35,183 nucleotides of DNA from a virus: the UHGV virus genome UHGV-0213391. The stretch is one strand, 5' to 3'. Shown piece after piece: positions 3,450 to 31,760 of the stretch (its first letter is position 1; each line of letters starts with the position of its first letter). The position numbers and the translations under genes are program-made. The notes below the pieces were generated by a model, which searched no databases, had not been told where the DNA came from, and was given only the letters and a program-made list of their open reading frames with translations.

Positions 3450-3565
3450 CATGACCCTGAGGGTAGGAAAGGAACTGTACAAAAAGCTGAACATTATATT
3501 CATAAGTATATTTATAATCAATAAATATAATCCCTCCCTGTCCGCCAGTTTTTTATTTCGCTAGA

Positions 3566-3608: not shown

Positions 3609-3641
3609 ACGCTACATTACCACAGAAAACGGAATGCTTGC

Positions 3642-3678
3642 TGTACAAGTGGCTGTACAAGTTTTAAAAATTGTACAG
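3642..3678. repeat. Three TGTACA(A)G repeats overlapping the integrase start (candidate operator or arm-type sites)
   Basis: ctGTACAAGtggctGTACAAGttttaaaaattGTACAGttctATG. TGTACA is self-complementary. A fourth copy lies at about 3474. Confidence 0.4.
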
Positions 3679-3682
3679 TTCT

Positions 3683-4870: not shown

Positions 4871-4973
4871 TCCTCTCGGGAGGAATTTGTCATCACGTGA
4901 ACGGATAATCGATGACACAACGTCTTACCGGAGTCACAAGACATCAAATCTCATGAAAAAACAGGAATTCCTA

Positions 4974-10153: not shown

Positions 10154-10491
10154 GAACCAGGGCAAGAGCTATCCATCGGCCCGGCGTGATGAACAAGACG
10201 GAAGCCGCCTATGGCTTTTACTTGTCTGACCTCCAAAACAAGGGGGAAATACGGGAATTTAAGTTTGAAGCCGTCAAACTGATCTTGGGGAACCGCTGCT
10301 CATACACACCGGATTTCATGGTTGTCCGCCCAGACGGCACCCTTGAATTCCACGAAGTGAAAGGCTTTTGGCGCGACGATGCCAGGGTAAAAATCAAGAC
10401 GGCCGCCGACAAGTTCCCCTTTGTTTTTATCGCTGCCAAGCAGACAAAAACGGGTTGGGAAATCGAAACAATCCAGGAAGGAGAAAATTGA
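10150..10491 (+). CDS. DUF1064-family phage protein (PD-(D/E)xK-like; start more likely ATG 10189)
   Basis: 'MNKTEAAYGFYLSDLQNKGEIREFKFEAVKL...YTPDFMVVRPDGTLEFHEVKG' matches the DUF1064 pattern. Confidence 0.55.
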   Translation: MRTRARAIHRPGVMNKTEAAYGFYLSDLQNKGEIREFKFEAVKLILGNRCSYTPDFMVVRPDGTLEFHEVKGFWRDDARVKIKTAADKFPFVFIAAKQTKTGWEIETIQEGEN

Positions 10492-10492
10492 A

Positions 10493-10819
10493 ATGAATAG
10501 ATTTAAGAAAACATATAGAGAATGCCTTTGCTTAGTATCATCAGGAGGTTTTGTCGCAGGATGTATTTATCCGATCGTTGGTTGGAATAATGGTCTACAT
10601 GTTATTACAGAAGATAAAAACGGTGAACCATTGGATTATTTGCTTCATAACGGGGGCGGTGATCCTGTTGAAAACGAATATGGGATAACAGGCGATCTTG
10701 CGGCGGTAGATGATAGATTCTACGAAGAACAAGGGAACTTAATATTCCGAACTTTGGTTGACGGTAAAATTGACACATATCCGTGGGAGCTTGAACAGAA
10801 GGGAGGGGCGGAACAATGA
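10493..10819 (+). CDS. Putative lipoprotein (AT-rich moron)
   Basis: SD GGAAGGAG. 'MNRFKKTYRECLCLVSSGGFVAGC' is a signal peptide with a lipobox-like VAGC. GC content is distinctly lower. Confidence 0.4.
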   Translation: MNRFKKTYRECLCLVSSGGFVAGCIYPIVGWNNGLHVITEDKNGEPLDYLLHNGGGDPVENEYGITGDLAAVDDRFYEEQGNLIFRTLVDGKIDTYPWELEQKGGAEQ

Positions 10820-11025
10820 AAAGGACATACGATGTCATTGTTTGGATTGCCACTATAAATAGAGAAACGCACCTAATTGAACCGAAAGATGTTTTAATTG
10901 CTCACGGTTTGAGAACAAAGCGTTCCGCCCGGAAATACATTGAATTTTACAAGGAAGAATACGACCAGAAAGAAAATATGTATGAAATCCTCGTGTCAGA
11001 TGGAAAGGAGGCCAGCAATGATTAA
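10816..11025 (+). CDS. Hypothetical small protein (69 aa)
   Basis: ATG overlaps the previous stop; SD GAAGGGAGG; AT-rich. Confidence 0.4.
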   Translation: MKRTYDVIVWIATINRETHLIEPKDVLIAHGLRTKRSARKYIEFYKEEYDQKENMYEILVSDGKEASND

Positions 11026-11437
11026 CATCCTCGCATCCGTCAGGCGGCCTTTCTCCGGCTTTATCCTGGACGGCAAAAAGCCATGGGAACTGCGTAAAAA
11101 CGCGCCGCGCATCCCCCGCGGAGAACACGTCACGCTCTGGACCTACGAATCCGGCAAAGACGGGGCGCGGGCGATCATCGGCAAGTGCCGGATGGTCTCC
11201 TATGTACGCATGCTTTATATGCCATCCGGGCAAGCCCTGGAACTATTGATCAAAGACGCCTGCGTAACGGAAGAGCACATCCGCGCCTATCTCCCGTTCT
11301 ACGCCTGGGGCGTCCAAGACCCCGTGAGACTGCCCGCCGCCGTGCCGCTCTCTGCCATCGGCCTGACCCGTCCGCCGCAGTCCTGGCAGTACCTTACCCC
11401 GGAGCAGGCGGCGATACTGGAAAGGAGGCTCGCATGA
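11018..11437 (+). CDS. ASCH (PUA-like) domain protein
   Basis: SD GGAGG. 'ILASVRRPFSGFILDGKKPWELRKNAPRIPRGEHVTLWTYESG...AIIGKCRM' matches the ASCH pattern. Confidence 0.5.
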   Translation: MINILASVRRPFSGFILDGKKPWELRKNAPRIPRGEHVTLWTYESGKDGARAIIGKCRMVSYVRMLYMPSGQALELLIKDACVTEEHIRAYLPFYAWGVQDPVRLPAAVPLSAIGLTRPPQSWQYLTPEQAAILERRLA

Positions 11438-11595
11438 AACTGGTGCCTGAGCAGAAAGCTTTTTACAAGTACGGACGGCCTATTATGAAAAATTGTTGCA
11501 CATGTAAGTATGGAGCTTACTTTAAAATGGTTCCATGTTCCATATGCGATGAAAATTTTAGCAGCTGGGCACCGAGAAAGGAGGAAAATGAATGA
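11434..11595 (+). CDS. Small zinc-ribbon protein (53 aa)
   Basis: 'NCCTCKYGAYFKMVPCSICDE' has four Cys in C-x-C and C-x2-C pairs. ATG overlaps the previous stop; AT-rich. Confidence 0.35.
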   Translation: MKLVPEQKAFYKYGRPIMKNCCTCKYGAYFKMVPCSICDENFSSWAPRKEENE

Positions 11596-18569: not shown

Positions 18570-18640
18570 ACATCAGGCCATACCTCCCCGTTAGCTTCTT
18601 CCTTCGCCACATCCTCCGCCTGGATCCCTATCCCTGGCAG

Positions 18641-19948
18641 GTGGAGGCCATCAAGGCGCTATCCCTTGGCAAGATTGCCCTGGGCGGAAAAAGCGTGGCT
18701 CTGGTAGCCCCCAACGGATCAGGCAAGACAAGCAACTGCATTGCGCCGGCCATCCTGTACTTTCTCACCTGTTTTCCGCGGGGACAGGTTCCCGTCACGT
18801 CCTCTTCGTGGATGCAAGTGGAAAAGCAGCTCTTCCCGTCGCTGCGCCGCTACATGGACAACCCCTTCTTCGCCGGCTGGACGTTCAACAAGACGGAAAT
18901 CCGTACCCCTGAAGGAGGTTTTGCCGTGGGATTCTCCACCGACAACGCCGGACGCGCGGAAGGATGGCACCCGAAAATATCGCCCGACGTGGACCCGGTC
19001 TTTTACGTCCTCGACGAAGCCAAGACCATCCCGGACCCCATCTTTACCGCGGTTTCCCGCTGCACGCTCTTTCATGCGTTCATCACATCGTCACCTGGAG
19101 CTGACTCCGGCACCTTCTACGACTGCTTCCACAAAAATTCCTCCCTCTACTACAAAATCCGCGTCAAGTACGAGGACTGCCCCCACATTGAAATCAACGA
19201 CCCAGGCAAGGCTGCCCGCATCAAAAAAGAATACGGCGAGCAATCCTCCTTCTATCGCTCCGCCATCCTCGGAGAATTCACGGACCTTGACGGGCAATCC
19301 GTCATTTCCCGCCGCGCCCTCATGGAGCTGCTTAACAATCCGCCTCCCTTTTTGGACACCGGGGAGACCTGCGGCGGCTTTGACTTCGCCGCCGGAGGCG
19401 ATGAAAACGTCTTTGCTGCCGGGCAGGGCAACCGGTTCTTCATCGCGGACCACTGGGCAGACCCGGACACCGTAGGAGCGCGCGGACGGTTCCGCCGCAA
19501 GGCCGCCGAACTCGGCATTCCAGCCGACCGCATTTTCGCGGATGGAGACGGCCTTGGACTCCCCCTCATTGACGACTTCCGCGCCGAGGGCTTCCCGGTG
19601 CACTCCTACCGGGGCGGATTTCCCGCCGACGATACGCAGGCCTTTGTCAACATCCGCGCCCAGGCATGGAGAGCATTGGCACGTGCGATCGAGGAAAAAG
19701 AGCTCATCCTCGACATTGATGAGGACACCATTGAGCAGCTTGTCGCGCCGCGCGTCCAGACGGACGCAATTGGCCGCGTCAAAATCGAGAGTAAGGAGGA
19801 CATGGCGAAGCGCGGCGTCCGCTCTCCCGACCGTGCTGATGCGCTCGTCATGGCCTGGCACGCGCGCCGGCACAGCGGGCTTGTCCGGGAGCTTGGAGCG
19901 TGGTATGCCAGACATCCGGCACAAAAACGCTCCATTGGCAGATATTAG
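18641..19948 (+). CDS. terL: Terminase large subunit (probable true start upstream at AGG 18575)
   Basis: Walker A-like 'VALVAPNGSGKT', Walker B 'YVLDEAK', and a nuclease-domain C-terminus. The conserved '...LDPYPWQ' lies in-frame upstream of the first canonical start (GTG 18641). Confidence 0.85.
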   Translation: MEAIKALSLGKIALGGKSVALVAPNGSGKTSNCIAPAILYFLTCFPRGQVPVTSSSWMQVEKQLFPSLRRYMDNPFFAGWTFNKTEIRTPEGGFAVGFSTDNAGRAEGWHPKISPDVDPVFYVLDEAKTIPDPIFTAVSRCTLFHAFITSSPGADSGTFYDCFHKNSSLYYKIRVKYEDCPHIEINDPGKAARIKKEYGEQSSFYRSAILGEFTDLDGQSVISRRALMELLNNPPPFLDTGETCGGFDFAAGGDENVFAAGQGNRFFIADHWADPDTVGARGRFRRKAAELGIPADRIFADGDGLGLPLIDDFRAEGFPVHSYRGGFPADDTQAFVNIRAQAWRALARAIEEKELILDIDEDTIEQLVAPRVQTDAIGRVKIESKEDMAKRGVRSPDRADALVMAWHARRHSGLVRELGAWYARHPAQKRSIGRY

Positions 19949-20000
19949 GGTTGACAATATATCAACATATCTATATGTGTTGATGTATATTCAACCGCAG
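19945..20000. promoter_or_regulatory. AT-rich dyad-symmetric island with TTGACA between terL and the portal gene
   Basis: gggTTGACAATATATCAACATATCTATATGTGTTGATGTATATTCAACC is an extended imperfect palindrome in a GC-rich context. Confidence 0.4.
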
Positions 20001-20191
20001 GGTGGTGAAACGGTATCATATGAGGTTCCTGTCCTCATGTCGGAGGTCCAACTCCTCCCCCTGCAACCAACCTTTTTCTTTCCTCCCGCCGCAGGTTTAA
20101 CGCTGTCCGAAATATCCTCAACGCTCCGAAGCTGGTCGCCCAACAGGAGACCAGAATCAAGGAACTGGAAACAGACCTCGCCCGGCAAGCC

Positions 20192-21457
20192 TTGACGGAC
20201 CGGAGCCGCATTCCTGGCCGCCCTCAATGGTTTGAATACTGGGACCCTCTTCAGGGCGCTGGCTTGCAAACACTTATCGATGCACGCAACGAAGCTAGAC
20301 GCGGCGCCTTTGCGCGGCAAATGCTCATCTGGGACGAGGTTATCTACTCGGACGGACTTCTGGGCATGCTCTACTCCCGGTTAATTGAAAGCGTTTCCAT
20401 GCAGGGCTGGAAGATTGACGCCGCGGACGACAGCCCGGAAGCCCAGCAGCAGAAAAACGCCCTGGAAGAATTCTACAACTCCGTCAACGGACTTCAGCAG
20501 TCCTTCGGGCATCTGGCCTCCGCTCTGTTCTACGGCTACGCCCACCTCCAATATATTGAGGACGCCTGGGGCCGGAGGTTTGAATTCATTCCCCAGCGTT
20601 ACTGGGTGCGGCCCGGGGAACTTAATGAGTGGCAATTTAACCCCCACTGTTATATCGGCGTCGATATCGGGGAAAGCGTGGAAGACGAAACTCTCGTCGT
20701 GATGGAGCACCGTTACCCCATCCTGTTCCCTGCTTCCCGCGCATCCTTTGAGCGCAACCACGCCAAGATGATCTGGGACAACCACATGGACCGTTACGGC
20801 TCCGCCCCGGCTATTATCACAGCCCCCAAGGAGGCAAGCGCCGCTGTCATGGACGCACTTGAGCGCGCCTGCGAAGAGCTCAAGTCTGGCGCATCCGTCG
20901 TCCTGCCTCCCAGCTGTACAGCAGAACCCCTCAAGGCATCCTCCATCAATGAAAACTATTTCCTCTCCCGCATCAACATGGCCGACAAGGACCAGGTGCG
21001 CTTTGTCATGGCAGGAACGCTGACCGTCTTGAATGAATCAGGTTCCGGCACTCTGGCCGGGTCTGCGCATACGGACAGCTGGAACTCGGTAGTCTCCGCC
21101 GTGTGCTCCAAGGTGGCGGAAGCTTTTAACGCCTCCATCAGCCCGCTGGTACTGGGAGACGGCGAACCACTGGCCCGCCTCCAAATCACCTTTGACACCG
21201 TTCAGACGCCGCTGCAGAAGGCCGAGGAAATTGCCACTCTTGCGGATGGAGGCGTCCGTCCCGAGAAAACCGAAATCGAGGAAAAGATCGGCATGTCCAT
21301 CGAAGACACAAGGGAAACCGCTCCCGCAGCGGCTGCCGTCAACCGGGAACCGGAAGGCGCACACATCCCGCCCGACGCCTACGAACAGCTGCAGCAGCTC
21401 ATTTATACCGGGCTCATGAAAGGATTTAGCGATGATCAGTACCAAACAAATCAATGA
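20192..21457 (+). CDS. Portal protein (Mu gp29/DUF935-like; probable true start at AGG 20093)
   Basis: Position directly after terL; 421+ aa. The in-frame upstream extension 'FNAVRNILNAPKLVAQQETRIKELE...' looks coding. Confidence 0.65.
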   Translation: MTDRSRIPGRPQWFEYWDPLQGAGLQTLIDARNEARRGAFARQMLIWDEVIYSDGLLGMLYSRLIESVSMQGWKIDAADDSPEAQQQKNALEEFYNSVNGLQQSFGHLASALFYGYAHLQYIEDAWGRRFEFIPQRYWVRPGELNEWQFNPHCYIGVDIGESVEDETLVVMEHRYPILFPASRASFERNHAKMIWDNHMDRYGSAPAIITAPKEASAAVMDALERACEELKSGASVVLPPSCTAEPLKASSINENYFLSRINMADKDQVRFVMAGTLTVLNESGSGTLAGSAHTDSWNSVVSAVCSKVAEAFNASISPLVLGDGEPLARLQITFDTVQTPLQKAEEIATLADGGVRPEKTEIEEKIGMSIEDTRETAPAAAAVNREPEGAHIPPDAYEQLQQLIYTGLMKGFSDDQYQTNQ

Positions 21458-22553
21458 CCTGTCCAATCCCGCCAACGGCTGGTTCCACGTCGAGAAAAGC
21501 GGAGATCATGAGGTCGACTACGGCGAGGGGCCTGCGGTGCTCCGCATAGACGAGCAGGCAATCAAGTCCATGGTGGACGAATTCAACTCCCGCACCTTTG
21601 ACGGGCCCGGCATGCTCATTGACGGCGACCACTTGAGCCATGACCTTTCACGCGACACTCGCGCCCTCGGATGGCTCAAGCGGCTGGACACCTACCGCGA
21701 TCCTTCCGGCGCGTTGGAGCTGTACGGCTTCATCGAATGGACACCGCGCGGGCAGCAAATGTTGGCCGACAAAGAATATACGCAATCCTCCACTGAATAT
21801 GGAGAGGGCATGACCTTTAACGACGGCATTTACCGCCCTGCCAAGCTGACAGGCTTCGCCCTGACCAACCGGCCCCGCATCAAGGGCAAGCGCCCTCTGG
21901 TCAACCGACAGACTTCCCCCGCCTCCACAGAGGCCGGGGGCGAACAACAAAGCCCCGAACAGGGGGAAAACAACCCAGAAACCAATATGGAAAACGACGA
22001 CAGAGAATATCCGTCCAAGGAAATGGACAAGGCCCAGCGGGCCCTGTTCGATTCCCTGCTTGACAAGCTGGATGTCGAATTTGACGGCACCGACGACATG
22101 AGCAGGGATATCCTCGGACGCCTCGATGAACTGCTCTCGCTGGAAAAGCGAGAGAAAGACCACGTGAACGCCGAAGTGGACGACGCCGTCAGCACGTACG
22201 AAAACGAGCTGGACGAGGAAGAACGCAAGGAATTCACGGAAGAACGCCGGGAAGAGCTGAAAAACTCTCTCCGGGAAAGCCCCGCCGCACTGGGCGCCTT
22301 TGTCAAGGCTCTCAATCGGTCCGCGAAGTCAAAGCCGCCGCATGACGTTGTTGATGAAAGCCGCCGAAATCCAGCTGGAAGAACGTCCTTGAACCGCCGC
22401 GCCACCCAGGCGCCGCCCAATCCGTTCCGCAAAAAGGAATCCATCGACGGATTCCAGAACCGCGTGGACGAATTGATGAAGGGCGGCATGAAGCGGTACG
22501 ATGCCTTCCAGAAAGCCACCGAAGAAGGCTACATTGTAACCTCCGAACGATAA
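21432..22553 (+). CDS. Mu gpI-like head protease/scaffold protein
   Basis: 'GWFHV...LIDGDHLSHD...ALGWLKRL...IEWTPRGQQMLADKEYTQSSTEY...LTGFALTNRP' matches the Mu I-protein family pattern. Confidence 0.7.
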   Translation: MISTKQINDLSNPANGWFHVEKSGDHEVDYGEGPAVLRIDEQAIKSMVDEFNSRTFDGPGMLIDGDHLSHDLSRDTRALGWLKRLDTYRDPSGALELYGFIEWTPRGQQMLADKEYTQSSTEYGEGMTFNDGIYRPAKLTGFALTNRPRIKGKRPLVNRQTSPASTEAGGEQQSPEQGENNPETNMENDDREYPSKEMDKAQRALFDSLLDKLDVEFDGTDDMSRDILGRLDELLSLEKREKDHVNAEVDDAVSTYENELDEEERKEFTEERREELKNSLRESPAALGAFVKALNRSAKSKPPHDVVDESRRNPAGRTSLNRRATQAPPNPFRKKESIDGFQNRVDELMKGGMKRYDAFQKATEEGYIVTSER

Positions 22554-22573
22554 CCCCAACCTGATACAAACCA

Positions 22574-23005
22574 ATGCCATCACTCAATGTAACCCAGAAA
22601 AGCGCCATCGTCTATTTCAACACCCCGGAGGGTGTTGACCTGTGCGGACAGGAAGGAACCGTCGTAGCGCTGACCGCCAACCCGGACATCCCCGAGTTTA
22701 TCGGGACGCCGTTGTCCGCCATCCCTACGCAGACGCAACTGCTCGGCGTAGTCCTGCAAGGGCAGCCCAACCAGGGAACCTGCGTCGCCGCCCTCGTCGG
22801 AATGTATGCCGGCCTGATCAAGGCGGCTCTTTCCGACACGCCAGGCACGATCAACGCCGGAACGCCCCTCACCATCACGGCCAACGGAGCATGGAAGGCC
22901 GCCGCCAGCGGTGAAACCGTCTATGCCCGCGTGATTCACGCCCAGTGGGAACAAGGCATGGTGGAAATCGGCTTCGTCCCCTCCTACCAGGTCGCGGCTG
23001 CGTAA
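22574..23005 (+). CDS. Hypothetical head protein (143 aa; possible decoration or DUF2190-like)
   Basis: Lies between the protease/scaffold and capsid genes; Ala/Gly-rich. Confidence 0.45.
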   Translation: MPSLNVTQKSAIVYFNTPEGVDLCGQEGTVVALTANPDIPEFIGTPLSAIPTQTQLLGVVLQGQPNQGTCVAALVGMYAGLIKAALSDTPGTINAGTPLTITANGAWKAAASGETVYARVIHAQWEQGMVEIGFVPSYQVAAA

Positions 23006-23225
23006 CATCAACCCCAACCAATAGAAAGACCAAAAAACAAGGGCTACTCCATTTTGCTCAGCCGTCCAGTTCACCGATGTCCTGACCGCCTACTCAGCCG
23101 GCTCCGGGAATACCGAAGAGAACTCCATTATCAGCCGCATCGCGCCGATCGTCCCGGTCTACGACCTTAACTTCCAGTACAAGGTCTGGGACACGGATTC
23201 GGCATTCACGGTCCAGCCAATCCAG

Positions 23226-23963
23226 GTGGGACCGGGCGAACCTCCCCGCCAGACCATCCTGCGCGGCAGGAACGAAACCGACACCCTTCAGGGTTACGGC
23301 TTGACCTTGCCGATTCCGGATGCCTTGCTGGGCGTCAACCGTGAAAAGGCGCAGGCTATCACCCTGGCGGAATACAAGCTCATCGAATCACAGTTCGTGA
23401 CCTCGTATGAGTATGAACGCGCCAAGCTCATCACCAGCCAGCTGCCTGCCGCAGCCGGGTACGGGGACTGGGCCAACGAACAGAAGAACCCGCTGGCGGA
23501 CCTCGACAAGGCAATCCTGTCCATCAATGCGGCTACCGGACGCATGCCGAATACCATCGTCTTTGGCATCAACGCCTGGCAGCTCCTGCGAGCCAACCCC
23601 ATTGCCAGACAGGTGGTGTCATTCAACAGTGTCGGCCTTTTCAACGAAGACCTGCTCCGCAATGCGCTGATTCGGCCTATCAGGGATATTTACATCGCAG
23701 CCATGCCCTACCGCGACGCTTCCGGCGACGCCAAGACCATCATGGAGAACGAAGTCTATGTCCTGTACAAGGAAGACTCCCCGACGCAGTTCGACGCCTC
23801 TGCCATCAAGACGTTTGGTTTGTCCGGCAAGCTCCGTCGCGAAGTCATCACGGAATACAAGCCGACTCCCGCTCTGACGCTGGTAACCAACCGTGTCTAC
23901 TCGCTGACCAAGCTGACCAACCCGTCCGCCATCGTCCGCATCGACGCGACGGCCACGGCTTAA
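23226..23963 (+). CDS. Putative major capsid protein (coding appears to begin at AGG 23040)
   Basis: Position after the protease/scaffold. The in-frame upstream 'ATPFCSAVQFTDVLTAYSAGSGNTEENSIISRIAPIVPVYDLNFQYKVWDTD' looks coding and has no ATG/GTG/TTG. Confidence 0.55.
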   Translation: MGPGEPPRQTILRGRNETDTLQGYGLTLPIPDALLGVNREKAQAITLAEYKLIESQFVTSYEYERAKLITSQLPAAAGYGDWANEQKNPLADLDKAILSINAATGRMPNTIVFGINAWQLLRANPIARQVVSFNSVGLFNEDLLRNALIRPIRDIYIAAMPYRDASGDAKTIMENEVYVLYKEDSPTQFDASAIKTFGLSGKLRREVITEYKPTPALTLVTNRVYSLTKLTNPSAIVRIDATATA

Positions 23964-23985
23964 CCCGCGCCAACCCGCCTCCATC

Positions 23986-24462
23986 ATGTCTGCCTTTCCC
24001 GCCTGGTCCACCATCACTACGGATGAAGCCGACCGACTGCTCGGCCTCAACACCGCAGAACGCGACGCCCTGGTGAAAGCCGGGGAACAGCGCAGCCTGG
24101 ACTACCGGGACGTCATGATGGAGGCGGTCAACGATGTCTGCATGGCCATCCGCGGGGCGCTGGCCAACAACCTCGCCCTGCGGCAATCGCTCCAAAACAG
24201 CGGGATGTACGACATCCCGCAGAGCATGCGCTCCCTGGCGTGGCCGCTGATCATCCGGCAGCTCTACCTGCGCTACCAGATCAACCTGACCGAAACGCGC
24301 CAGAAGGCAGCCGAATCGGCTGATGAGATGTTGTCCCGCTATGCACGCGGGGAAATGCTGCCGGAAAGCGTGGACGGCTCCGCACCCGCGGATCCCGCCT
24401 ACATGATGCCGCGCTACACGCGCCGCCCCTGGTTCAACCCCATGAGAAGCACCTACCGATGA
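23986..24462 (+). CDS. Hypothetical head-tail protein (158 aa)
   Basis: ORF with ATG start in the structural module. Confidence 0.5.
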   Translation: MSAFPAWSTITTDEADRLLGLNTAERDALVKAGEQRSLDYRDVMMEAVNDVCMAIRGALANNLALRQSLQNSGMYDIPQSMRSLAWPLIIRQLYLRYQINLTETRQKAAESADEMLSRYARGEMLPESVDGSAPADPAYMMPRYTRRPWFNPMRSTYR

Positions 24463-25595
24463 TGACCGCCGCCCAGATGGAGATGATCGCCAACGACTAC
24501 GCCGAGCGCGCCTTTTTCGTGTCCGGGGTGGAACCCGGCGTCATCCTGTCCGACTTTGAGGATAAGGCCGGCAAGGTCGCCACCGGCGCCTTGAGCTACG
24601 AGGAAGCGCAGCAGGCCATCCGTGAAACCCTGCGCCAGCAAGGCTATCGTCCTCCGGAGACAGGGCAGGGCGGCATTCAGGATTTGTCCTCCTGGCTCCG
24701 CATCCAGGTCGTCATGGAAACCAACGCGGCCATGGCCCACGGGTATCGGAACTGGTACAACTGGACACAGGACGACAGCACGGCCGCCTTCAAATTTTAC
24801 CGCTCCCAGGGCCGGGAAGATCCCCGCTACTGGGCCGAACGCTGGAACCGGGCCAGAGCCGGATTAGAAGAAGAAGCCACGGAAGCGGTATCATCCGGCT
24901 TCATCCGCGGCGAGATCGTCGGCTATGCGCTGGCGTCCTCCGATATTTGGGTGCGTCTCTCGCGGTTCGGCACGCCTTACCCGCCCTTTGACTACCTGTC
25001 CGGCATGAACATCGCCCCCGTGGGCGCCGAAGAAGCCCGCGCGGCCGGGCTGGACGTGTCGCGCGTCCGTCCTGCTCCTGCCAGCTTCAACGCCACATTG
25101 GAAAGCAACGCCAAAGGCGTGACGGAATCCAACAAGAACAAGATCCGCCGCATCCTGAAAGAAGCCGTGCGTGTCACGCAAGAGAACGACGGCAATACCA
25201 CCTTTACCTATACCGACCCGAACGGGACGCGCCCTTACACGGACGCGGAACTGGCGGAAGTCCTGTCCGGGGATTTCCCGGAAGAGATCCCCTTGCGTCA
25301 GGCCCAGGCGTTCCGTCTGGCGGCAGCCGGGGGAGCCGTGGCCGGAACGCTGGCATCACTTTACCTCGACCGCCTGCTGGACCGTCTGGCTTCCGAGCCG
25401 GAAGGCGTCTGGTACGCGCGGCCCGCGGACGTGGCTTCCGCGTCCTCCCTTCAGTATATCCCCGTTTCTCAGAAGGAAGAGGGAGAATTCACCTATCCCA
25501 TTACCTCCGGGCACGTCAGGAAAGTGGAAGACGTCGCCGGAGCCCTCAATGTGGAACTGTCAACCCCTTACGTTTTACCCGTCAAATGGCTGTAA
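24459..25595 (+). CDS. Hypothetical structural protein (378 aa; possibly head-morphogenesis-like)
   Basis: Long ORF; 'RIQVVMETNAAMAHGYRNWYNW' weakly recalls Mu F/SPP1 gp7-type domains. Confidence 0.5.
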   Translation: MMTAAQMEMIANDYAERAFFVSGVEPGVILSDFEDKAGKVATGALSYEEAQQAIRETLRQQGYRPPETGQGGIQDLSSWLRIQVVMETNAAMAHGYRNWYNWTQDDSTAAFKFYRSQGREDPRYWAERWNRARAGLEEEATEAVSSGFIRGEIVGYALASSDIWVRLSRFGTPYPPFDYLSGMNIAPVGAEEARAAGLDVSRVRPAPASFNATLESNAKGVTESNKNKIRRILKEAVRVTQENDGNTTFTYTDPNGTRPYTDAELAEVLSGDFPEEIPLRQAQAFRLAAAGGAVAGTLASLYLDRLLDRLASEPEGVWYARPADVASASSLQYIPVSQKEEGEFTYPITSGHVRKVEDVAGALNVELSTPYVLPVKWL

Positions 25596-26251
25596 CCGTC
25601 CACATCGACCAATCCGCGATTGACCGCGCGTTTGCCGGCATGGCGCCGTCCGCCGCCCTGCACAAGACCGCCATCCGCAAGGCGGGCGTTGCCCTCAGTC
25701 TGATGATTCAGCAAACCTTGCGCCAACAGGGCAAGGACTACTACGACGCCGCGGCGGACGCCACCAGCATGGAAGAAACCGCCGAAGGCGTCAGCGTCTC
25801 CATTGCCTGGCGCGGCATCGGCCTGCACTGGATAGGCACGCAGGGCTACCTGGGCGGCCCGCTGCGGCCCACCGGACGCACTTCGGAAGTCACCGGCAAG
25901 CCGATTCAGAACCTCGCCATCCCCACCATCAACGCGCCACGAGGGCATGGAGGGACCCGAAGCATTTACAGCGCAGGCTTCCGCAAAGACGATTTGCAAT
26001 TCATCCCCTCCAAAAACGGAGGACGGAATGGAAATGTAACCGGCGTCCTGATTCTCAAGACGGCCCAGTCCTCCACCGGAAAGAAAGCGGCCCGCAAGCT
26101 GTTCCGGCAGGGAGCCAGAACCGGCGACGTGCTCTACGTGCTGTGCCGTGAAGTCACGATCCCGCCAACGCCGGGCATTCTCCCGACGATGGACCGGATG
26201 GCGCAGCGCGCCGCGGAAACTTACCTCGCCAACATCGGAAACGCATCATGA
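25586..26251 (+). CDS. Hypothetical virion-morphogenesis protein (221 aa)
   Basis: Start overlaps the previous ORF end; structural module. Confidence 0.5.
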   Translation: MAVTVHIDQSAIDRAFAGMAPSAALHKTAIRKAGVALSLMIQQTLRQQGKDYYDAAADATSMEETAEGVSVSIAWRGIGLHWIGTQGYLGGPLRPTGRTSEVTGKPIQNLAIPTINAPRGHGGTRSIYSAGFRKDDLQFIPSKNGGRNGNVTGVLILKTAQSSTGKKAARKLFRQGARTGDVLYVLCREVTIPPTPGILPTMDRMAQRAAETYLANIGNAS

Positions 26252-26775
26252 TCCCATCCATCGACCAAACCATGTGCCGGCGCATCATTGAACGCCTCAA
26301 GAGCCTGGGAGCGCTGAACTGCCACATCTTTGAACGGCCCTTCGACCCCCAGTACGCCGCCAATGATATCATCATGTCGGCCATGGGAAACAACGGCGTT
26401 GTTCTGGTGTGTCCCGGCGAAGCTGCCGAATACCAGGACGGGCACGGCCAGACCGCCGTCCCGACCATGTGGCGGCAGTATTTCATCATCGCCGCCATTT
26501 ATCACAACGCATCCCTGTTCCCGAAAGAATGCCTGACGCCGGATTACTATCTGCGCGCCCTGGGCGACCTGATTGAGGAAACCCTTTGGGACTGGAACCC
26601 TTTTCCCTTTGCCGCTTCCGCCTCCATGAAAGGAAAGGTCAAGGGCCGCTTCGCTTCCTCCGCCCGCATTGACGGAGAGGAACGCCAAATGAACGTTTTG
26701 ACCGTGGATTACCGTGTCCCGGTCAACATCAACATAAGAAACCATCCGAAATTCGATGAACACACCCACAACTGA
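26248..26775 (+). CDS. Hypothetical tail/neck protein (175 aa)
   Basis: ATGA overlap with the previous gene. Confidence 0.5.
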   Translation: MIPSIDQTMCRRIIERLKSLGALNCHIFERPFDPQYAANDIIMSAMGNNGVVLVCPGEAAEYQDGHGQTAVPTMWRQYFIIAAIYHNASLFPKECLTPDYYLRALGDLIEETLWDWNPFPFAASASMKGKVKGRFASSARIDGEERQMNVLTVDYRVPVNINIRNHPKFDEHTHN

Positions 26776-27019
26776 CAAGAAGGCCGTGCGGAAGAGCGTC
26801 CCCAAGCCGGACGATCCCCGCGAAACCGCCGACAAAACGTCGGCAACGCCGAACGAAAAGAAGAAAACCACTGACAAGAAGGCCGTGCGGGTCATTCGCA
26901 CCCGCGCCGAACTGGACGGAGGGCTGATTCTCAGCCTCTCCATGAAAACCGATACCCCGGAACTTCCCGCGCCCGTCGCGGAAGCTCTGGCAACCCTCAA
27001 CCTTGTTGACATCAAATGA
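26756..27019 (+). CDS. Small Lys/Thr-rich protein with internal duplication (TTDKKAVR x2)
   Basis: A 22-bp direct repeat, ACTGACAAGAAGGCCGTGCGG, occurs at 26770-26791 and 26869-26890. Confidence 0.4.
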   Translation: MNTPTTDKKAVRKSVPKPDDPRETADKTSATPNEKKKTTDKKAVRVIRTRAELDGGLILSLSMKTDTPELPAPVAEALATLNLVDIK

Positions 27020-27213
27020 GCAAAGCAACTACATCCAACACCGAACCGGAGAAGAAGACGGAGCAGGCCGCCGTCATCGACACGAATATCCTCATCCTCG
27101 CCAAAGAAGTGAGGATAGGGCGCTCAACCTTCTTGAAAGGGGCGCGCATCCGTGCTACAAAAGAACTCGCCGATAAACTGGAAGCCGACGGCAAGGCATC
27201 CATCATTTACTAA
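27016..27213 (+). CDS. Hypothetical small protein (65 aa)
   Basis: ATGA overlap with the previous gene. Confidence 0.4.
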   Translation: MSKATTSNTEPEKKTEQAAVIDTNILILAKEVRIGRSTFLKGARIRATKELADKLEADGKASIIY

Positions 27214-27320
27214 TCATTTCCAGCATCAGGGCTACTACATACGATCCCACCTTTTCTAACCGCAACGTCACGCCGCAGATTACCGGCGTTCTGGCGATTT
27301 TCCTCCCCGACGGCATCAAG

Positions 27321-27878
27321 GTGACCGAAGACGGGGGAGTTTCCTACGTCACCGGACCGGACCAGTTTCCGACGCCTCCCACGGCTCCGCCCGCCGATCC
27401 GACAGCCGGGCCTGAACAGCCCTGGGTGAGTTTCGGGCTTTTGGGCGCGTTCCAGTCCGTCGCCACACAGGTCGAAGGGGAAGTAACGCGCTTTTACGGC
27501 GGCAATCTCGGCTACCGGCAGCAGCGAAAGAACACCACGACCGGCAAGCGGTTGACGTTCACCACGCCGGACATGTCCCCGGAATATTTCCAACTGGCGT
27601 TCGCTCTGGGAGCCGCCCCCGCCAACGGCGAGGAATCGACCACCGTCGGACACGGAGGCGACAACAAGATCGAAGGGTATCTTCATTTCTGGTATCAGAA
27701 TGACGTGGGTACGATCTATTTGGTCGGAACCGCGCATGGCGCTTTGCGCCTGCTGCAGGACCCCGAGCACACCACGGCGATTGCTTCGCCCCAGTTCGAG
27801 TTCGAAATGGATTACCGCGGCCAGTACCAGTTCACGCCCTCCAATGTGCAGGACGTGACGCCGGTCCCGGGCTCCTGA
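27321..27878 (+). CDS. Putative major tail protein (coding appears to begin at AGG 27228)
   Basis: Followed by a strong terminator. The in-frame upstream '[31 protein letters not shown]' starts 15 nt after the previous stop. Confidence 0.5.
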
Positions 27879-27890
27879 CGTGTTTCACCA

Positions 27891-27922
27891 GGGGGCCGCG
27901 CGCCCCCGCATCCCCTTTTTTT
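27891..27922 (+). terminator. Rho-independent terminator
   Basis: GGGGGC-CGCGC-GCCCCC hairpin followed by a T7 run. Confidence 0.65.
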
Positions 27923-27985
27923 CCCAGGCAGCAGGCAGGCAAATACGATATACGGACAGTCACGGGGCTCAACCAGTCACTGGTA

Positions 27986-30043
27986 GTGCGCGTGGTGGAT
28001 TTCCAGGGGGATCCCGTCGATATGGGCGGCGTCACCCTGCGCGGAGCCGTTCGCCTCAAGACGGGTATCGCCGAGTTCGGCTTTTCCCGTGACGACGAGG
28101 GCAACGGCGTGATTTCGTGGGCCTCGGTGCCCGCGGGCATGTGGTCCTACGATGTCTTCATGGATGACGGCAATGAGGAAAGCCCGCTTCTCTATGGATG
28201 CTTTGTTTCCTCAGGCCGGGTGACGCCGGACTTGCCGGACGAGCAGCAGGCGGTAGCGGGTGCGGTCGTCGTGCAGCTGCCGGAAGGAAGCGGATGCGTG
28301 CAGGTGGTGCTTGATAATGCGTCAAGCGCCGCCTGGTACGCGGAGCAGGCCAAGAAGTACGCCGAGAATTTCAATCTTTCGGTGGACCGGGTCACTACCG
28401 GCGAACCTGGCACTCCTGCCGCAGCGGAAGCCGTGAAAGGCTCGGAAGCGGGCTCTTATCTGTTGTCGTTTACCATCCCCAAAGGAGACGCCGGCCCCGA
28501 AGGCCCACCAGGCCCGCAGGGGGAACCGGGCGAAACCGGCCCCGAAGGCCCCCAGGGTCCCAGGGGCGACGCAGGACCTCAAGGTCCTCAGGGAGCGACC
28601 GGAGAACAGGGACCAAGAGGCGACATTGGAGAAACCGGACCGCAGGGTCCTGCCGGCCCGCAAGGACCCGAGGGGCCGGAGGGGCCCCAAGGGCCCCGTG
28701 GCGAGAAAGGAGATACGGGGGATGTTAATCCGGACGGTTCTTATAACTGGACGCAGCCGCAGACCTACGACGCCACGATCACCGCAATCGAAGGAGTCCG
28801 TGTGCCGCTGCCCGCCACAGGGCAGAATGCCATTTCCTATGAGGGAATGATAACCATGACGGCTGCCGGCCAATGGAGCCGCACCAATTATTTTCTGGAA
28901 TCCGTCATTCCGTCATGGGTGACTGCCTTGGCGGAAGCCCAGTCGTTGAGCACAAGCTACGCAATTGCTACCGCTAACGCCTCCCTGAAGAAGGGAGTAT
29001 TTAATAACGACTTGTGCGATATGGTGTTAACCATGACGGCGGCAGGGGGTGTTTCTGTTATCGGCAAATCCACGGGATCATGGAAATTTGCCAATTACAT
29101 GGGCAACAATAGAAATAACGAATATGCTGCCGCTTGCGTCTGGCGGATACTTGGCTCTGACAAGGTGTCGGTCCTCTTGGGCAGCACTGCCCAAGGGTAC
29201 GCTACGACTGCCGATCCGCTGGCGTCCTGCTATGCACATCCTGTGCACTGGGTGGATTATGCCTGGGATAATGCAAATTACAGATACCCTCAAAACAATA
29301 CAGTCAATGGAGCGAGAGGGGGCGACAATGTGCCGGCGTATCAGATCACTACCTACCCTATGGGGTATCTGGGGAGCAATAAGTCGGCCTTGATAAGAGG
29401 AACGTTTTATGGACCCCTCAAGGTAGATTCCCATTATGTTTGGGCATTGGCTCCGGCTTTTACCTACGTCTCCGCGGCCATGACGCCACCCAACCCCGAT
29501 GACCAGGAGATTTACAATCGCTGGGCTTTGTTTGTGGACAAGCAATATGTAATGGATATGGCTTCCTCCTTTTGGGGCGCCGGCAACACAGCATGCCTTA
29601 CAACCAAATTCAAAGCACACGAAGTCAGCGGGACTTATCAGGCGGGCCTCCGTATGGGAGGGATAAGGATAGACAATGTACCCTCACTGGGCATAACCAA
29701 TTCCTGGGGCCTCATGAAGGACACGGTAATGGAGGGTGTGACGCCTAAACCAGTTCCAGAAGTAACGGCTTCTGCGCAGGAAGTTCCGGCCTCTGGCGGC
29801 GAGGTGACATTGACGGCGTCTTCCACCCTCTCCGAAGCTATCTATGTGCTGAACGATACCATGTGCGGACATGACCCCGCCGCTGTGTGGTGCACGCAAT
29901 CCTCTGAAGAAATAGGGTCCGGCGGCCAGGTTGTCCTGACGCTGGCGGCCAACACGACCGGGCAACCCCGGCAAGTGTGGGCGTTTGTCGGCCACCATTA
30001 CGCCGAGGCCGCTGTTGTAGAAATCAACCAATTAGCACAATAA
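27986..30043 (+). CDS. Collagen-like tail fibre protein (probable start at AGG 27926)
   Basis: About 80 G-X-Y triplets ([29 protein letters not shown]...). The C-terminal globular domain is typical of a receptor-binding fibre. Confidence 0.8.
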
Positions 30044-30047
30044 CACC

Positions 30048-30458
30048 ATGAAAGAGATACATTTACAGTTCCCTGAGCCTGGACGGTGGAACGAATTTGT
30101 TATGACCGCCAGATTTCCCGACAATAACGGCTTTGTACTCTCCCTCTGCTATACACAAGCGGATATACCCGCCGACCAAGCCCCGGCCTTGAAAGCAGCG
30201 GTGGCCGCGATCGCCGGCATGGACGAGGACTGGCAAGCGGCGCAGGTTTGGGTGCGGTGCAACTGGGTATTCCAGGCGCCGACTGGAGATGCAGACAATT
30301 ACCAGTCCACAGAGGCGGTGATCCTTACGGTTGAGGCCGTTAATGCGGATGGGGGCCGCCGGACATTCACGGCTTCGGACTACCCGGAATTCATCATCAC
30401 GGATTCCGCGGCTGTGTCGTTTTTCAAATACTTCACCAATAACAACATAATCATATGA
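30048..30458 (+). CDS. Hypothetical protein (136 aa)
   Basis: ATG 5 nt after the fibre stop. Confidence 0.5.
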   Translation: MKEIHLQFPEPGRWNEFVMTARFPDNNGFVLSLCYTQADIPADQAPALKAAVAAIAGMDEDWQAAQVWVRCNWVFQAPTGDADNYQSTEAVILTVEAVNADGGRRTFTASDYPEFIITDSAAVSFFKYFTNNNIII

Positions 30459-30907
30459 CTACTAATGATCAATGCAATCATTCCGAGGCTATCGCCAAGG
30501 ATTTTTATGAGGTGGTTTCCGAGGATAACGGCGGCGGCTGGAAGTCCTGGAAAGAATTAACCGATCCGCAGCGGGCAGCGTTTGTGCGATTGGCGCAGCA
30601 AGCCCTGCCTATTATTGGCAGGCATGCGCTGGGGGATGTCCGGGACTACCTCGGTATTAAGGCTGCCGGCAAGTCTAGCTGGTGGGAAAAGGCCCTGTAT
30701 ACCGCCGGAGCAGTTATTGCCGGGGCCATCCTTGGCGGCTTGGGAATGTCCCTCTCCGGCTGCGGGCATAACGTGGACATTACCCCGGACCGCACGGAGG
30801 TCTGCAAGGACGGTTCCTGCCTGATCATCGAGCCGGGCCACCTGTCCTACAGCCAGGCCCAGCCCGCCACGGATACGCCGCCCGTAGTTCAAGCCACCAA
30901 GAAATAA
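30455..30907 (+). CDS. Membrane protein with central TM segment (holin-like or lysis accessory)
   Basis: 'YTAGAVIAGAILGGLGMSLSG' is a TM helix. The gene is upstream of the amidase. Confidence 0.45.
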   Translation: MTTNDQCNHSEAIAKDFYEVVSEDNGGGWKSWKELTDPQRAAFVRLAQQALPIIGRHALGDVRDYLGIKAAGKSSWWEKALYTAGAVIAGAILGGLGMSLSGCGHNVDITPDRTEVCKDGSCLIIEPGHLSYSQAQPATDTPPVVQATKK

Positions 30908-30911
30908 GACC

Positions 30912-31163
30912 ATGTGCAAACTCTCCGAAGTACCGGCACGTTTCTTCGATTTCGCCAAGGCTTTCCCCGCCTGGGCCTGCGTCATGCTCTCGCTGGGCAT
31001 TTGTGGCGCGGCCTGCTGGTACATCGGAGATGTCATGGGACATCACAACGACCGACTTTGCGATCTGATGACGATGCAGACGCAGGCCCAGGTAGAGACG
31101 GCAAAGGCTATTCAGCTTCTTGCCATCAGAATAGAGAATATCGAGCGGAAGCTTGAAAAATAG
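30912..31163 (+). CDS. Putative holin (83 aa, one TM, charged C-terminus)
   Basis: 'FPAWACVMLSLGICGAACWYIG' is the TM helix and the C-terminus is polar and charged. The gene sits immediately upstream of the amidase. Confidence 0.45.
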   Translation: MCKLSEVPARFFDFAKAFPAWACVMLSLGICGAACWYIGDVMGHHNDRLCDLMTMQTQAQVETAKAIQLLAIRIENIERKLEK

Positions 31164-31334
31164 TCAACTGTAAAGTTTTTCTTACAAGTTCATACATATT
31201 AATAACCAATCAATTAAAGGAGAATACCCAGGAAAATAGCCATTGATATAGGCCATGCCAACAACACCGGAGCCCGTGGAAACAGGCTTGAAGAACACGC
31301 CGTAGCAGCGACGATTGCGGAACGCCTCGCGCCT

Positions 31335-31760
31335 ATGCTCAGAAAGCTGGGCGCCCAGGTGGATGTAATTGACTTTCCGACCCGGAACAACACGGACGAC
31401 CTGAACGCCACCATCAAGGCCGCCAACGAAGGCGGCTACGACTTCGGGATTTCCCTGCATTGTGACTCATCGGATAATGTGCAAGCTCACGGCGCCCATG
31501 TGTGCTTCTATCCCGGGAGCGTTAAGGGAAGCCGGCTTGCCATGTGCGTCGCGGAACCTCTTGCCCGGCTGCTCCCAGGACGGGCCAACACCGTGCAGTC
31601 CCGTCCGGGGCTGGCCGTCCTGAAAAGGACGCGCTGCCCGTGGGTGCTGTGCGAATGCGGCTTTATCACCAATCCTGAAAATGCCGCCCTTATGAAGGAC
31701 CATCCCGAAGCCATTGCGGAAGCCATTGCGGAAGGAGTGAAGGCCTATTCCAAGCTGTAG
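31335..31760 (+). CDS. N-acetylmuramoyl-L-alanine amidase (Amidase_3) endolysin; the catalytic N-terminus starts at AGG 31230
   Basis: In-frame upstream 'KIAIDIGHANNTGARGNRLEEHAV' carries the Zn ligands H and E. 'ISLHCDS' and 'CECGFITNPENAA' are also present. SD AAGGAG lies 7 nt before AGG 31230. The first canonical ATG is 31335. Confidence 0.85.
   Translation: MLRKLGAQVDVIDFPTRNNTDDLNATIKAANEGGYDFGISLHCDSSDNVQAHGAHVCFYPGSVKGSRLAMCVAEPLARLLPGRANTVQSRPGLAVLKRTRCPWVLCECGFITNPENAALMKDHPEAIAEAIAEGVKAYSKL

Follow-up and report, generated by a model that had tools for sequence, protein, structure and literature searches.

Introduction

In Streptomyces, the bldA tRNA-Leu(UAA) gates developmental genes that contain TTA codons, placing a set of genes under one dedicated tRNA and a late programme under post-transcriptional control. 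This tRNA is an elongator, the rare sense codon keeps its normal meaning, and the start codon is not involved. In gut phages, codon meaning itself is changed by phage-encoded tRNAs, with suppressor tRNAs that read TAG or TGA in late genes (bioRxiv 10.1101/2021.08.26.457843; PMC9523058). Late structural and lysis genes hold most of the recoded codons and early genes hold none, and the genes concerned are mis-annotated by standard gene callers. Initiation has been redirected by design in E. coli, where anticodon-mutant tRNAfMet retains an initiator body and is directed to a complementary non-AUG start, such as AGG or amber (bioRxiv 10.64898/2026.04.16.719103; 10.1101/2024.07.29.605542; PMC11744186).

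The DNA analyzed here, UHGV-0213391 (35,183 nt; hereafter the window), represents the whole genome of a temperate Akkermansia phage, and the element is found integrated in Akkermansia genomes. In the assembly of cultured A. muciniphila NBRC 114322, a relative, CP084202, forms a separate replicon of 31.9 kb, so the phage is probably viable. In the window, AGG codons stand at the starts of late genes, and a tRNA gene carries the matching anticodon. As with bldA, a gene set would depend on a single dedicated tRNA; as in stop-codon recoding, a phage tRNA would change what a codon means in late structural and lysis genes, and here too standard gene callers annotate the genes wrongly. Unlike a recoded stop, AGG is a sense codon that would gain a second meaning at initiation only, at a single position per gene, with elongation decoding and stops unchanged. 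Whereas the engineered initiators are synthetic, the phage system would be natural, conserved in a phage lineage and tied to particular late genes. We found no description in the literature of a natural AGG second start codon with a matching phage tRNA.

Results

AGG codons occupy the start positions of late genes

An earlier note on this DNA, made from the letters alone, had placed the starts of six late genes at in-frame AGG codons. Its coordinates were exact: each AGG is in frame with a long ORF and is followed by 20 to 62 codons free of any canonical start, as the note had said (Table 1). The placing of the TerL AGG behind terS and of AAGGAG ahead of the amidase AGG also holds. The gap before the gene at 27228 is 14 nt rather than the 15 given, its label as a major tail gene found no match in protein-family searches, and the C preceding AGG, to which the note had drawn attention, is not distinctive, since C also stands before 18 of the window's 37 ATG starts. 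Absent from that list was a seventh late gene, at 513, whose product has no family match. Its AGG is kept in 24/24 contigs, where the next eight codons vary mainly at the third position; a conserved TTG at 540, nine codons downstream, is a weaker alternative start.

Table 1. Positions of the AGG-start genes, the tRNA gene and the element 5' of it in the window.
Feature	Coordinates	Strand	Codons without ATG/GTG/TTG after AGG	Codons to in-frame stop upstream of AGG	Remarks
Late gene, 725 aa	513..2690	+			AGG start
TerL (large terminase)	18575..19948	+	22	65	AGG start, 5 nt after terS stop; phrog_2
TTGACA and imperfect palindrome/hairpin	19954..19993	+			Directly 5' of tRNA; conserved; promoter-like
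tRNA, anticodon CCU (reads AGG), encoded CCA end	19996..20069	+			ARAGORN; Rfam; between TerL and portal
Portal (Portal_Mu)	20093..21457	+	33	24	AGG start, 24 nt past tRNA 3' end
Major capsid	23040..23963	+	62	6	AGG start; phrog_1005 and capsid homologues
Structural gene, family unassigned	27228..27878	+	31	18	AGG start
Collagen-like tail fibre	27926..30043	+	20	75	AGG start directly after terminator-like hairpin and T-run
Amidase_3 endolysin	31230..31760	+	35	5	AGG start; AAGGAG 7 nt upstream

Comparison with homologues agrees with the earlier view of the AGG codons as true start positions. Residues 3-171 of the amidase align to positions 1-173 of the 174 in the Amidase_3 profile, and residues 2-170 to residues 3-174 of PDB 3qay_A. 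Capsid residues 13-264 align to positions 14-274 of the major-head family phrog_1005; the capsid homologues P0001, P0005 and P0047 have Met exactly at the AGG-aligned residue, and more distant capsids, 21-26% identical, carry ATG at the aligned codon. The alignment of TerL to phrog_2 begins at residue 16, and two related lineages have a TerL ATG one codon downstream (L036) or two codons upstream (L033) of the AGG position. These family matches assign the N-terminal stretches after AGG to the predicted proteins. Between AGG and the first canonical start, variable columns numbered 59, 43 and 174 at codon positions 1, 2 and 3, respectively (p = 8e-25). Because this variation is concentrated at position 3, the stretches upstream of the first canonical start evolve as coding sequence, under purifying selection.

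The tRNA and the AGG codons are retained, with diverged upstream leaders, in about 100 related Akkermansia phage and prophage contigs from many projects, comprising a GenBank phage record, a GTDB MAG, ~45 IMG/VR contigs and 54 metagenome contigs. AGG stood at the aligned start in 44/45 (TerL), 46/46 (portal), 45/46 (capsid), 37/37 (gene 27228) and 36/36 (fibre) sequences of a first set of relatives; in a second set, of metagenome contigs, the corresponding counts were 47/47, 52/52, 54/54, 38/39 and 36/36. Since AGG accounts for only 4.4 per 1000 late-gene codons, its conservation at aligned starts is not due to chance, and the judgement that six random start lesions would be implausible is upheld. 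The endolysin start alternates, with 12 AGG and 10 ATG in the first set and 23 AGG and 6 ATG in the second; a UPGMA tree of 35 unique sequences gives at least four switches between the two codons, among close relatives.

A tRNA(CCU) gene has features of bacterial initiators

The key feature, missed by the earlier note, is a tRNA(CCU) gene inside the very interval it had described. It is the only tRNA found in the window by ARAGORN and Rfam, scoring 49.9 bits with the Rfam tRNA model (gathering score 29), and ARAGORN labels it Arg(CCU). Judged by the hallmarks defined for bacterial initiator tRNA (PMC5389676), its predicted features are of the initiator type and unlike those of an arginine elongator. 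As in bacterial tRNAfMet, it has a C1xA72 mismatch, G2:C71, C3:G70, A73-CCA, and consecutive purine:pyrimidine pairs at 29-31:39-41 with the invariant G30:C40. The anticodon stem in the window (A29:U41 / G30:C40 / G31:C39) has the au/GC/GC pattern of a known natural initiator variant (PMC5389676). The acceptor stem is identical at 12/14 positions to that of E. coli tRNAfMet and at 2/14 to that of E. coli tRNA-Arg(CCU), E. coli serving as the reference for both. Among 15 variants of the tRNA, position 1:72 was unpaired in 15/15, every other pair was maintained (stems 100% paired), and 8 pairs showed compensatory changes, so that the tRNA is foldable and under selection. G2:C71 was present in 14/15, C3:G70 in 15/15 and G30:C40 in 15/15; 29:41 was G:C in 13 and A:U in 2, and 31:39 was G:C in 13 and U:G in 2. 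Counting against the initiator reading are U11:A24 in place of the secondary initiator feature A11:U24, the presence in the window variant of only two of the three anticodon-stem G:C pairs, an unusual T-loop (UCCAACU), and G19, which varies among relatives. The tRNA further differs from tRNAfMet in having CCU for CAU, G37 for A37 and a short D-loop, and in being phage-encoded.

Nearly all relatives retain TTGACA immediately ahead of the tRNA; the hairpin there occurs in two sequence types, and a promoter-like match lies at 19962-19991. The tRNA-less L033 has TTGACA-N17-TATGTT in the same TerL-portal gap. This element is probably the promoter region of the head operon, in which case the tRNA would be the first element of the portal-capsid transcript.

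AGG starts co-occur with the tRNA and are confined to late genes

All related contigs that span the TerL-portal gap carry both the tRNA and AGG starts, apart from L033-35, the sole related lineage found without the tRNA, which uses ATG or TTG in each of the six genes. In L033, ATG is found at the capsid (same codon), gene 27228 and the fibre, and TTG at the portal (same codon). L036, in which the tRNA is present, is a mosaic with ATG at TerL and capsid, the latter at the codon that is AGG in the window, and AGG at the portal, gene 27228 and the fibre. The co-occurrence among these relatives is strict, and it rests partly on shared ancestry because only one independent tRNA-less lineage was found.

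The AGG sites also have the features of translation-initiation regions. In 53-nt windows, mean folding energy was -3.7 kcal/mol at AGG starts and -3.0 at late ATG starts, compared to -13.2 kcal/mol at 327 other late-region AGG triplets (p = 1.5e-5), and upstream G content was 9% at AGG starts against 27% at the other AGG triplets. Unstructured, G-poor leaders are common to the AGG starts and the ATG starts of this phage. Of the 24 late genes, 7 start at AGG, against 0 of the 26 early/lysogeny genes (Fisher p = 0.0035); the seventeen other late genes, including terS, protease/scaffold and connector genes, keep ATG. Inside late genes AGG is less frequent than inside early ones (9.5 per 1000 codons), which argues against the tRNA serving codon supplementation.

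Discussion

The best explanation, to which we give a probability of roughly 80% on the sequence comparisons, is that a phage-encoded initiator tRNA(CCU) drives dedicated initiation at AGG, limited to late genes. Among the four options that the earlier note had set out with no preference, non-canonical initiation is the one borne out, whereas artefact, base modification and decay or silencing are excluded. Such initiation is feasible: engineered i-tRNA(CCU)/AGG was consistently the best non-canonical initiation pair across six E. coli strains, with 35- to 402-fold induction (bioRxiv 10.64898/2026.04.16.719103). The phage tRNA would enter the ribosomal P site at initiation and pair with AGG, and TerL, portal, capsid, gene 27228, fibre, endolysin and gene 513 would be translated from that codon, which host fMet-tRNA(CAU) would read poorly or not at all. 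Host elongator tRNAs would go on decoding internal AGG as arginine, since the C1xA72 mismatch should bar the phage tRNA from elongation. The amino acid on the tRNA is most likely Arg, judging from C35/U36/A73, and Met is possible. Charging weighs against the model: bacterial ArgRS normally needs A20, where this tRNA apparently has U, and MetRS normally needs CAU; for E. coli formyltransferase, basic aminoacyl groups are poor substrates.

As to purpose, we tentatively prefer, at somewhat less than even odds, a two-key gate or threshold on late genes, with the logic proposed for phage stop-codon recoding. Late-protein output would scale as late mRNA times tRNA, because the tRNA lies just downstream of the promoter-like element heading the portal-capsid operon. 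A simple on/off gate is weakened by the apparent co-transcription of the tRNA with its targets and by an endolysin that does equally well with ATG.

Possible, and less likely than gating, is that the same initiator tRNA serves orthogonality. Virion and lysis translation might continue when the phage or a host defence (e.g., an initiator-tRNA nuclease) stops fMet-tRNA initiation, or a genetic firewall might make the genes useless to competing phages or satellites without the tRNA. Co-transcription with the targets, probable from the position of the tRNA just downstream of the promoter-like element, would suit self-sufficiency better than an independent switch, and key structural genes have AGG in nearly all relatives while the endolysin alternates. 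With seventeen late genes starting at ATG, however, the phage would still need host initiation, and family searches of the window recognized no host-shutoff or tRNA-targeting gene.

It is improbable that the tRNA is a conventional tRNA-Arg(CCU) elongator serving rare AGG codons and that the AGG starts are deliberately weak, near-cognate sites read by host fMet-tRNA, holding late proteins low. Elongator tRNAs are common in phages and, like this gene, lie within structural modules; the ARAGORN label fits as well. Elongators, however, pair 1:72, which is unpaired here in every variant, and the acceptor and anticodon stems resemble tRNAfMet and not tRNA-Arg. An Arg elongator that reads AGG would not typically have G37 and U20, the codon concerned stands at starts and is depleted inside late genes, and the tRNA-less relative has no AGG starts. 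Low-level AGG initiation by the native initiator tRNA has been described (earlier work cited in bioRxiv 10.64898/2026.04.16.719103), but a very weak start is implausible for the capsid, one of the proteins that a phage is expected to make in greatest abundance.

That the window is a prophage in decay or under domestication, its late genes silenced through start-codon loss, is highly improbable: the element is indeed integrated in Akkermansia genomes, but no frameshifts or premature stops were found, codon-position variation indicates purifying selection even in the stretches ahead of the first canonical start, lineages only ~70% identical share one and the same G substitution at seven starts, and one relative was assembled as a replicon of its own from a cultured strain. 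Least credible is an error of sequencing or assembly, or a modified thymine that was called as G, for which nothing speaks but the oddity itself, against identical AGGs in ~100 independently assembled contigs, including the GenBank phage record, 584 normally read ATG triplets across the window, a co-occurring matching tRNA, and an endolysin with both AGG and ATG among relatives.

If dedicated initiation at AGG does act as a gate on late genes, it would make virion and lysis expression less leaky in lysogens and impose a delay after induction. The phage system would be the natural counterpart of what has been engineered with i-tRNA(CCU)/AGG, and would parallel, at the start codon, the recoding of stop codons in phages.

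Late genes that begin at in-frame AGG codons

An earlier note had placed AGG codons at the starts of six late genes. All six positions proved correct, each AGG being in frame with a long ORF, and 20-62 codons separate each from the first canonical start 3' of it. The note had also taken the stretches upstream of the first canonical start to be N-terminal parts of the proteins, and this is borne out by both family profiles and homologue alignments. Pfam Amidase_3 positions 1-173 of 174 correspond to residues 3-171 of the AGG-started endolysin, and residue 3 of the solved endolysin 3qay_A aligns with its residue 2. For the capsid, profile position 14 of phrog_1005 (major head) aligns with residue 13, and the capsid homologues P0001, P0005 and P0047 have their initiator Met exactly in the AGG-aligned column; ATG stands at exactly the AGG-aligned codon even in distant capsids of only 21-26% identity. 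The capsid N-terminal peptide encoded in the window from AGG is X-ATPFCSAVQFTDVLTAYSAGSGNTEENSIISR, and the phage of A. muciniphila NBRC 114322 (CP084202) encodes a diverged form of it. Variable columns between AGG and the first canonical start fall at codon positions 1, 2 and 3 in the numbers 59, 43 and 174 (chi-square p = 8e-25), and this strong codon periodicity argues that the segments are translated in that frame.

To these six we add a seventh, at 513, where AGG is kept in 24/24 relatives and the codons that follow vary mainly at the third position; a conserved TTG nine codons 3' of it is a weaker candidate for the start. A scan for further AGG starts, taking those with a G-poor leader free of structure and an ORF of 35 codons or more, gave back six of the seven known sites and no convincing new gene. 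The AAGGAG Shine-Dalgarno (SD) sequence of the endolysin (31215-31232) itself holds an in-frame AGG at 31218, directly 3' of a TAA stop, and with an AGG-reading initiator the SD could also act as an additional start four codons further upstream; AGG 31218 is not aligned with the ATG of relatives' endolysins.

The AGG starts expose a systematic annotation error in public databases. Capsid records (P0002-P0046), among them the NCBI 'major capsid protein [Akkermansia muciniphila]', are N-terminally truncated to 245, 246 or 278 aa instead of 307. Gene callers ignore the AGG start, and so in these prophages the capsid and major-tail genes are entered short; the same shortening affects the calls of portal, terminase and endolysin in the window and in one related contig.

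Genome layout

The window is a complete temperate phage genome of 35.2 kb, circularly permuted. Its late region is ~83% identical to Akkermansia phage DTMo-2021a (CP084202.1), and positions 115-3536 match the end of that record and 3633-4873 its start, which places the permutation junction near 3536-3633. Since the integrase gene follows directly after the junction, the attachment site probably lies near 3540-3630, judging from this gene order. Contigs of Akkermansia muciniphila, up to 283 kb long, carry related elements as prophages. The protein of the gene at 27228 found no match in Pfam or PHROG, only close homologues, and Pfam scans of the 50 predicted proteins found no formyltransferase, aminoacyl-tRNA synthetase, deformylase or IF-like protein. 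Over the whole window CTAG (observed/expected 0.42), GATC (0.66), ACGT (0.67) and GGCC (0.69) occur less often than expected, which fits an avoidance of restriction sites.

Features of the phage genome, with positions on the window
Feature	Position	Region and start
Gene at 513	513	725-aa late protein, AGG start
Integrase	3671-4870	early/lysogeny region
RecT		early/lysogeny region
YqaJ exonuclease		early/lysogeny region
DnaB helicase		early/lysogeny region
terS	18012	late module
TerL	18575	late module, AGG start
tRNA, anticodon CCU	19996-20069 (+)	between TerL stop and portal AGG
Mu-type portal	20093	late module, AGG start
Mu-like protease/scaffold	21432	late module
Major head protein (capsid)	23040	late module, AGG start
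Gene at 27228	27228	AGG start
Collagen-like fibre	27926	late module, AGG start
Amidase_3 endolysin	31230	late module, AGG start

A phage tRNA with initiator-like features

A single tRNA gene turned up in the window with ARAGORN and Rfam, and its CCU anticodon is complementary to AGG; the earlier note had described the AGG starts of this interval correctly and had missed the tRNA gene inside it. The tRNA reads CGCAGGG-UG-GUGA-AACGGUA-UCAU-A-UGAGG-UUCCUGU-CCUCA-UGUC-GGAGG-UCCAACU-CCUCC-CCCUGCA-A-CCA and scores 49.9 bits with the Rfam tRNA model. In the 15 distinct variants that relatives provide, pairing is complete (100%) in all four stems except at 1:72, with compensatory double changes in eight pairs. 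The paired stems, the compensatory changes and the Rfam score together indicate a cloverleaf tRNA under selection.

The exception at 1:72 is a C1xA72 mismatch in 15/15 variants, a standard pair never occurring, and it is followed by G:C at 2:71 (14/15, with one G:U) and C:G at 3:70 (15/15). This mismatch with 2:71 and 3:70 is the major formyltransferase determinant, and G:C pairs at 29-31:39-41 are the P-site licence of bacterial initiator tRNAs, where G30:C40 can suffice and au/GC/GC, the pattern of the window, is a natural initiator variant (PMC5389676). The phage tRNA has GC/GC/GC at 29:41, 30:40 and 31:39 in 11/15 variants: G30:C40 is present in all 15, 29:41 is G:C in 13 and A:U in two (the window type), and 31:39 is G:C in 13 and U:G in two. 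The discriminator is A73. Measured against E. coli rather than Akkermansia references, both confirmed by exact matches to annotated genes, the acceptor stem is identical at 12/14 positions to tRNAfMet and at 2/14 to tRNA-Arg(CCU); E. coli argW has G1:C72.

Other features are unlike those of initiators. More than 100 copies of the tRNA all have the anticodon CCU, not CAU, and all loci examined for tRNAs hold a CCU tRNA only. Position 11:24 is U:A in 15/15 variants rather than the A11:U24 of initiators, position 37 is G in most variants, the D-loop is short, and the T-loop is UCCAACU. Thus the tRNA, with the main structural marks of a bacterial initiator (1:72, 2:71, 3:70 and 29-31:39-41) but without CAU, appears to be initiator-like in its working without being a tRNAfMet. 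Arg(CCU) elongators carry A20 and A37, A20 being a major ArgRS identity element in bacteria; by our own numbering, the phage tRNA has U at position 20 (D-loop AACGGUA). In most variants the T-loop (20047-20053) places C at the near-universal U55 position, and G19 (D-loop 20009-20015) varies among G, C, U and A in relatives; constraint on the tRNA elbow seems, from these sequences, to be relaxed or unusual.

Directly 5' of the tRNA, at 19954-19993, lies a conserved TTGACA with an imperfect palindrome or hairpin, of which relatives have two sequence types that both keep the inverted-repeat character. Possible roles of this element are a promoter with operator and a signal for RNA processing. A relative that lacks the tRNA has a promoter-like TTGACA-N17-TATGTT in the same gap between TerL and portal.

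Co-occurrence of the tRNA and AGG starts among relatives

A 23-mer of the tRNA 5' half has matches in 30 IMG/VR contigs, with anticodon CCU in all. Capsid-anchored searches yielded further IMG/VR loci and 54 metagenome contigs, the two sets sharing some assemblies. In the first set the tRNA is present in 46/48 contigs, the exceptions being L046, a contig that begins downstream of the tRNA site, and the related locus L033. AGG stands at the aligned start of TerL in 44/45, portal in 46/46, capsid in 45/46, gene 27228 in 37/37 and fibre in 36/36 cases of the first set, and in 47/47, 52/52, 54/54, 38/39 and 36/36, respectively, of the metagenome set. The AGG is fixed while the 20 nt directly upstream diverge with indels.

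The only related lineage without the tRNA (L033-L035) has ATG at the capsid, gene 27228, fibre and endolysin, TTG at the portal, and in TerL an ATG two codons upstream. A mosaic relative with the tRNA (L036) has ATG at TerL and capsid and AGG at portal, gene 27228 and fibre. At the endolysin, close relatives divide between AGG and ATG 12:10 in the first set and 23:6 in the metagenome set, and a UPGMA tree needs at least four switches. Thus AGG and ATG can replace each other at these positions, AGG being seen only in company of the tRNA. L033, a Logan contig (SRR21426516), has 43% GC, compared to 59% in the late region of the window, and probably infects a different host. Scanning metagenomes for more tRNA-less relatives returned tRNA-bearing members of the same lineage only. 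A search of IMG/VR for other initiator-like tRNAs, using the pattern CGCGGGG...GGG-YU-NNN-RN-CCC...CCCCGCA with every non-CAU anticodon class, returned only reverse-strand matches to normal tRNA-Met(CAU) and one non-tRNA match, a weak negative given the strict pattern. One 55-kb contig, IMGVR_UViG_2850266918_000004 (L101 and L105), carries two copies of the gene-513 homologue ~24 kb apart, which may be tandem or neighbouring related prophages.

Initiation regions and codon use

The phage is mostly without SD motifs, in ATG and AGG genes alike; SD dependence was therefore discarded as a criterion for AGG starts, and its absence there is uninformative. The leaders of ATG starts are A/C-rich, G-poor and unstructured, and the seven AGG starts share this signature. 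In 53-nt windows the mean MFE is -3.7 kcal/mol at AGG starts, compared to -3.0 at late ATG starts and -13.2 +/- 5.1 at the 327 other AGG triplets of the late region (p = 1.5e-5 between the two AGG groups), and the upstream G content is 9% at AGG starts and 27% at those other triplets. The fibre has the lowest folding energy of the seven (-8.0 kcal/mol) because of a GC-rich hairpin (27884-27925, GGGGGCCGCGCGCCCCC); as the earlier note had observed of its terminator, a T7 run follows the hairpin and ends 3 nt 5' of the AGG, so that the fibre needs read-through or a promoter of its own. The early genes at 10125-11592 have strong GGAGG-type SD sequences, most other genes having none and A/C-rich leaders instead, which suggests that initiation in this phage comes in two styles.

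Of 24 late genes 7 have AGG starts, against none of 26 early/lysogeny genes, both strands counted (Fisher p = 0.0035). Per 1000 codons, late genes use 4.4 internal AGG and early genes 9.5, the opposite of what a codon-usage elongator would predict. Quadruplet pairing of C at -1 of the AGG with G37 of the tRNA (cf. PMC10018350) was considered and rejected: C also precedes 18/37 ATG starts of the window (Fisher p = 0.11), and where the tRNA has A37, in two variants, the AGG starts still keep C at -1.

Discussion

We put at roughly 0.7 the probability that this virus encodes a non-CAU initiator tRNA and that key virion and lysis starts have been rewritten to AGG. This would be a natural orthogonal initiation, in which the proteins begin with a residue other than Met (probably Arg, possibly formylated) and are made only with the viral tRNA. 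The tRNA would be the first element of the portal-capsid transcript and be cut out of it, which would put the new 5' end 24 nt from the portal AGG; the charged tRNA would then enter the P site with IF2 and IF3 and pair with AGG, and internal AGG would still be read as Arg by host elongators. We infer that the tRNA initiates translation; its aminoacyl group may be formylated. As to the amino acid, C35, U36 and A73 favour ArgRS, though A20 is missing; MetRS normally needs CAU. Engineered i-tRNA(CCU) behaves in this way in E. coli, where in each of six strains no other non-canonical pair did better than AGG/CCU, with 35- to 402-fold induction (bioRxiv 10.64898/2026.04.16.719103).

The purpose that we prefer for such a system is a two-key threshold for making virion and lysis proteins, their output being late mRNA multiplied by tRNA, which would suppress leakage in lysogens and delay assembly. 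The same leak-suppressing, delaying role has been proposed for stop-codon recoding in phages (10.1101/2021.08.26.457843). An orthogonality or firewall role in place of the threshold is a serious alternative.

An ordinary Arg elongator combined with deliberately weak AGG starts would account for the anticodon, which is that of tRNA-Arg(CCU), but the invariant 1:72 mismatch, stems like those of tRNAfMet, the lack of A20 and A37, and late genes low in AGG rather than enriched all contradict it; the capsid, moreover, needs high expression. The systematic artefact or modified base that the earlier note had entertained is excluded, since the same AGGs recur in ~100 independent assemblies and the matching tRNA co-occurs. 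Decay, like the silencing in a domesticated prophage that the note had listed, is excluded by the coding constraint and the intact ORFs; moreover, assembly of a cultured strain gave the relative CP084202 as a replicon of its own (PMC8941912).

A parallel in logic is stop-codon recoding, where the phage tRNA is likewise complementary to the reassigned codon (here CCU to AGG) and that codon is likewise confined to late, structural and lysis genes. The difference is that here, in place of an in-frame stop read by a suppressor tRNA, a sense codon is involved, at the initiation step only, and the ORFs are intact under table 11. To our knowledge, every natural initiator tRNA has a CAU anticodon, non-AUG starts being read by wobble with the same tRNA. 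In the full-text literature we found no natural phage non-CAU initiator tRNA and no AGG start codons in phages, only engineered analogues. The evidence for a natural system of CCU initiator and AGG starts is computational throughout.

Phage tRNA surveys by isotype only would have filed this molecule as 'tRNA-Arg'. The engineering of orthogonal initiation and phage biocontainment would gain a part that evolved in nature, and the system is directly testable in a culturable, medically relevant gut bacterium, as A. muciniphila NBRC 114322 carries a relative of the phage. If true, it would be the first natural exception known to us, cellular or viral, to the CAU-initiator rule, and a conserved natural CCU/AGG pair would show that viruses can recode initiation as well as termination.
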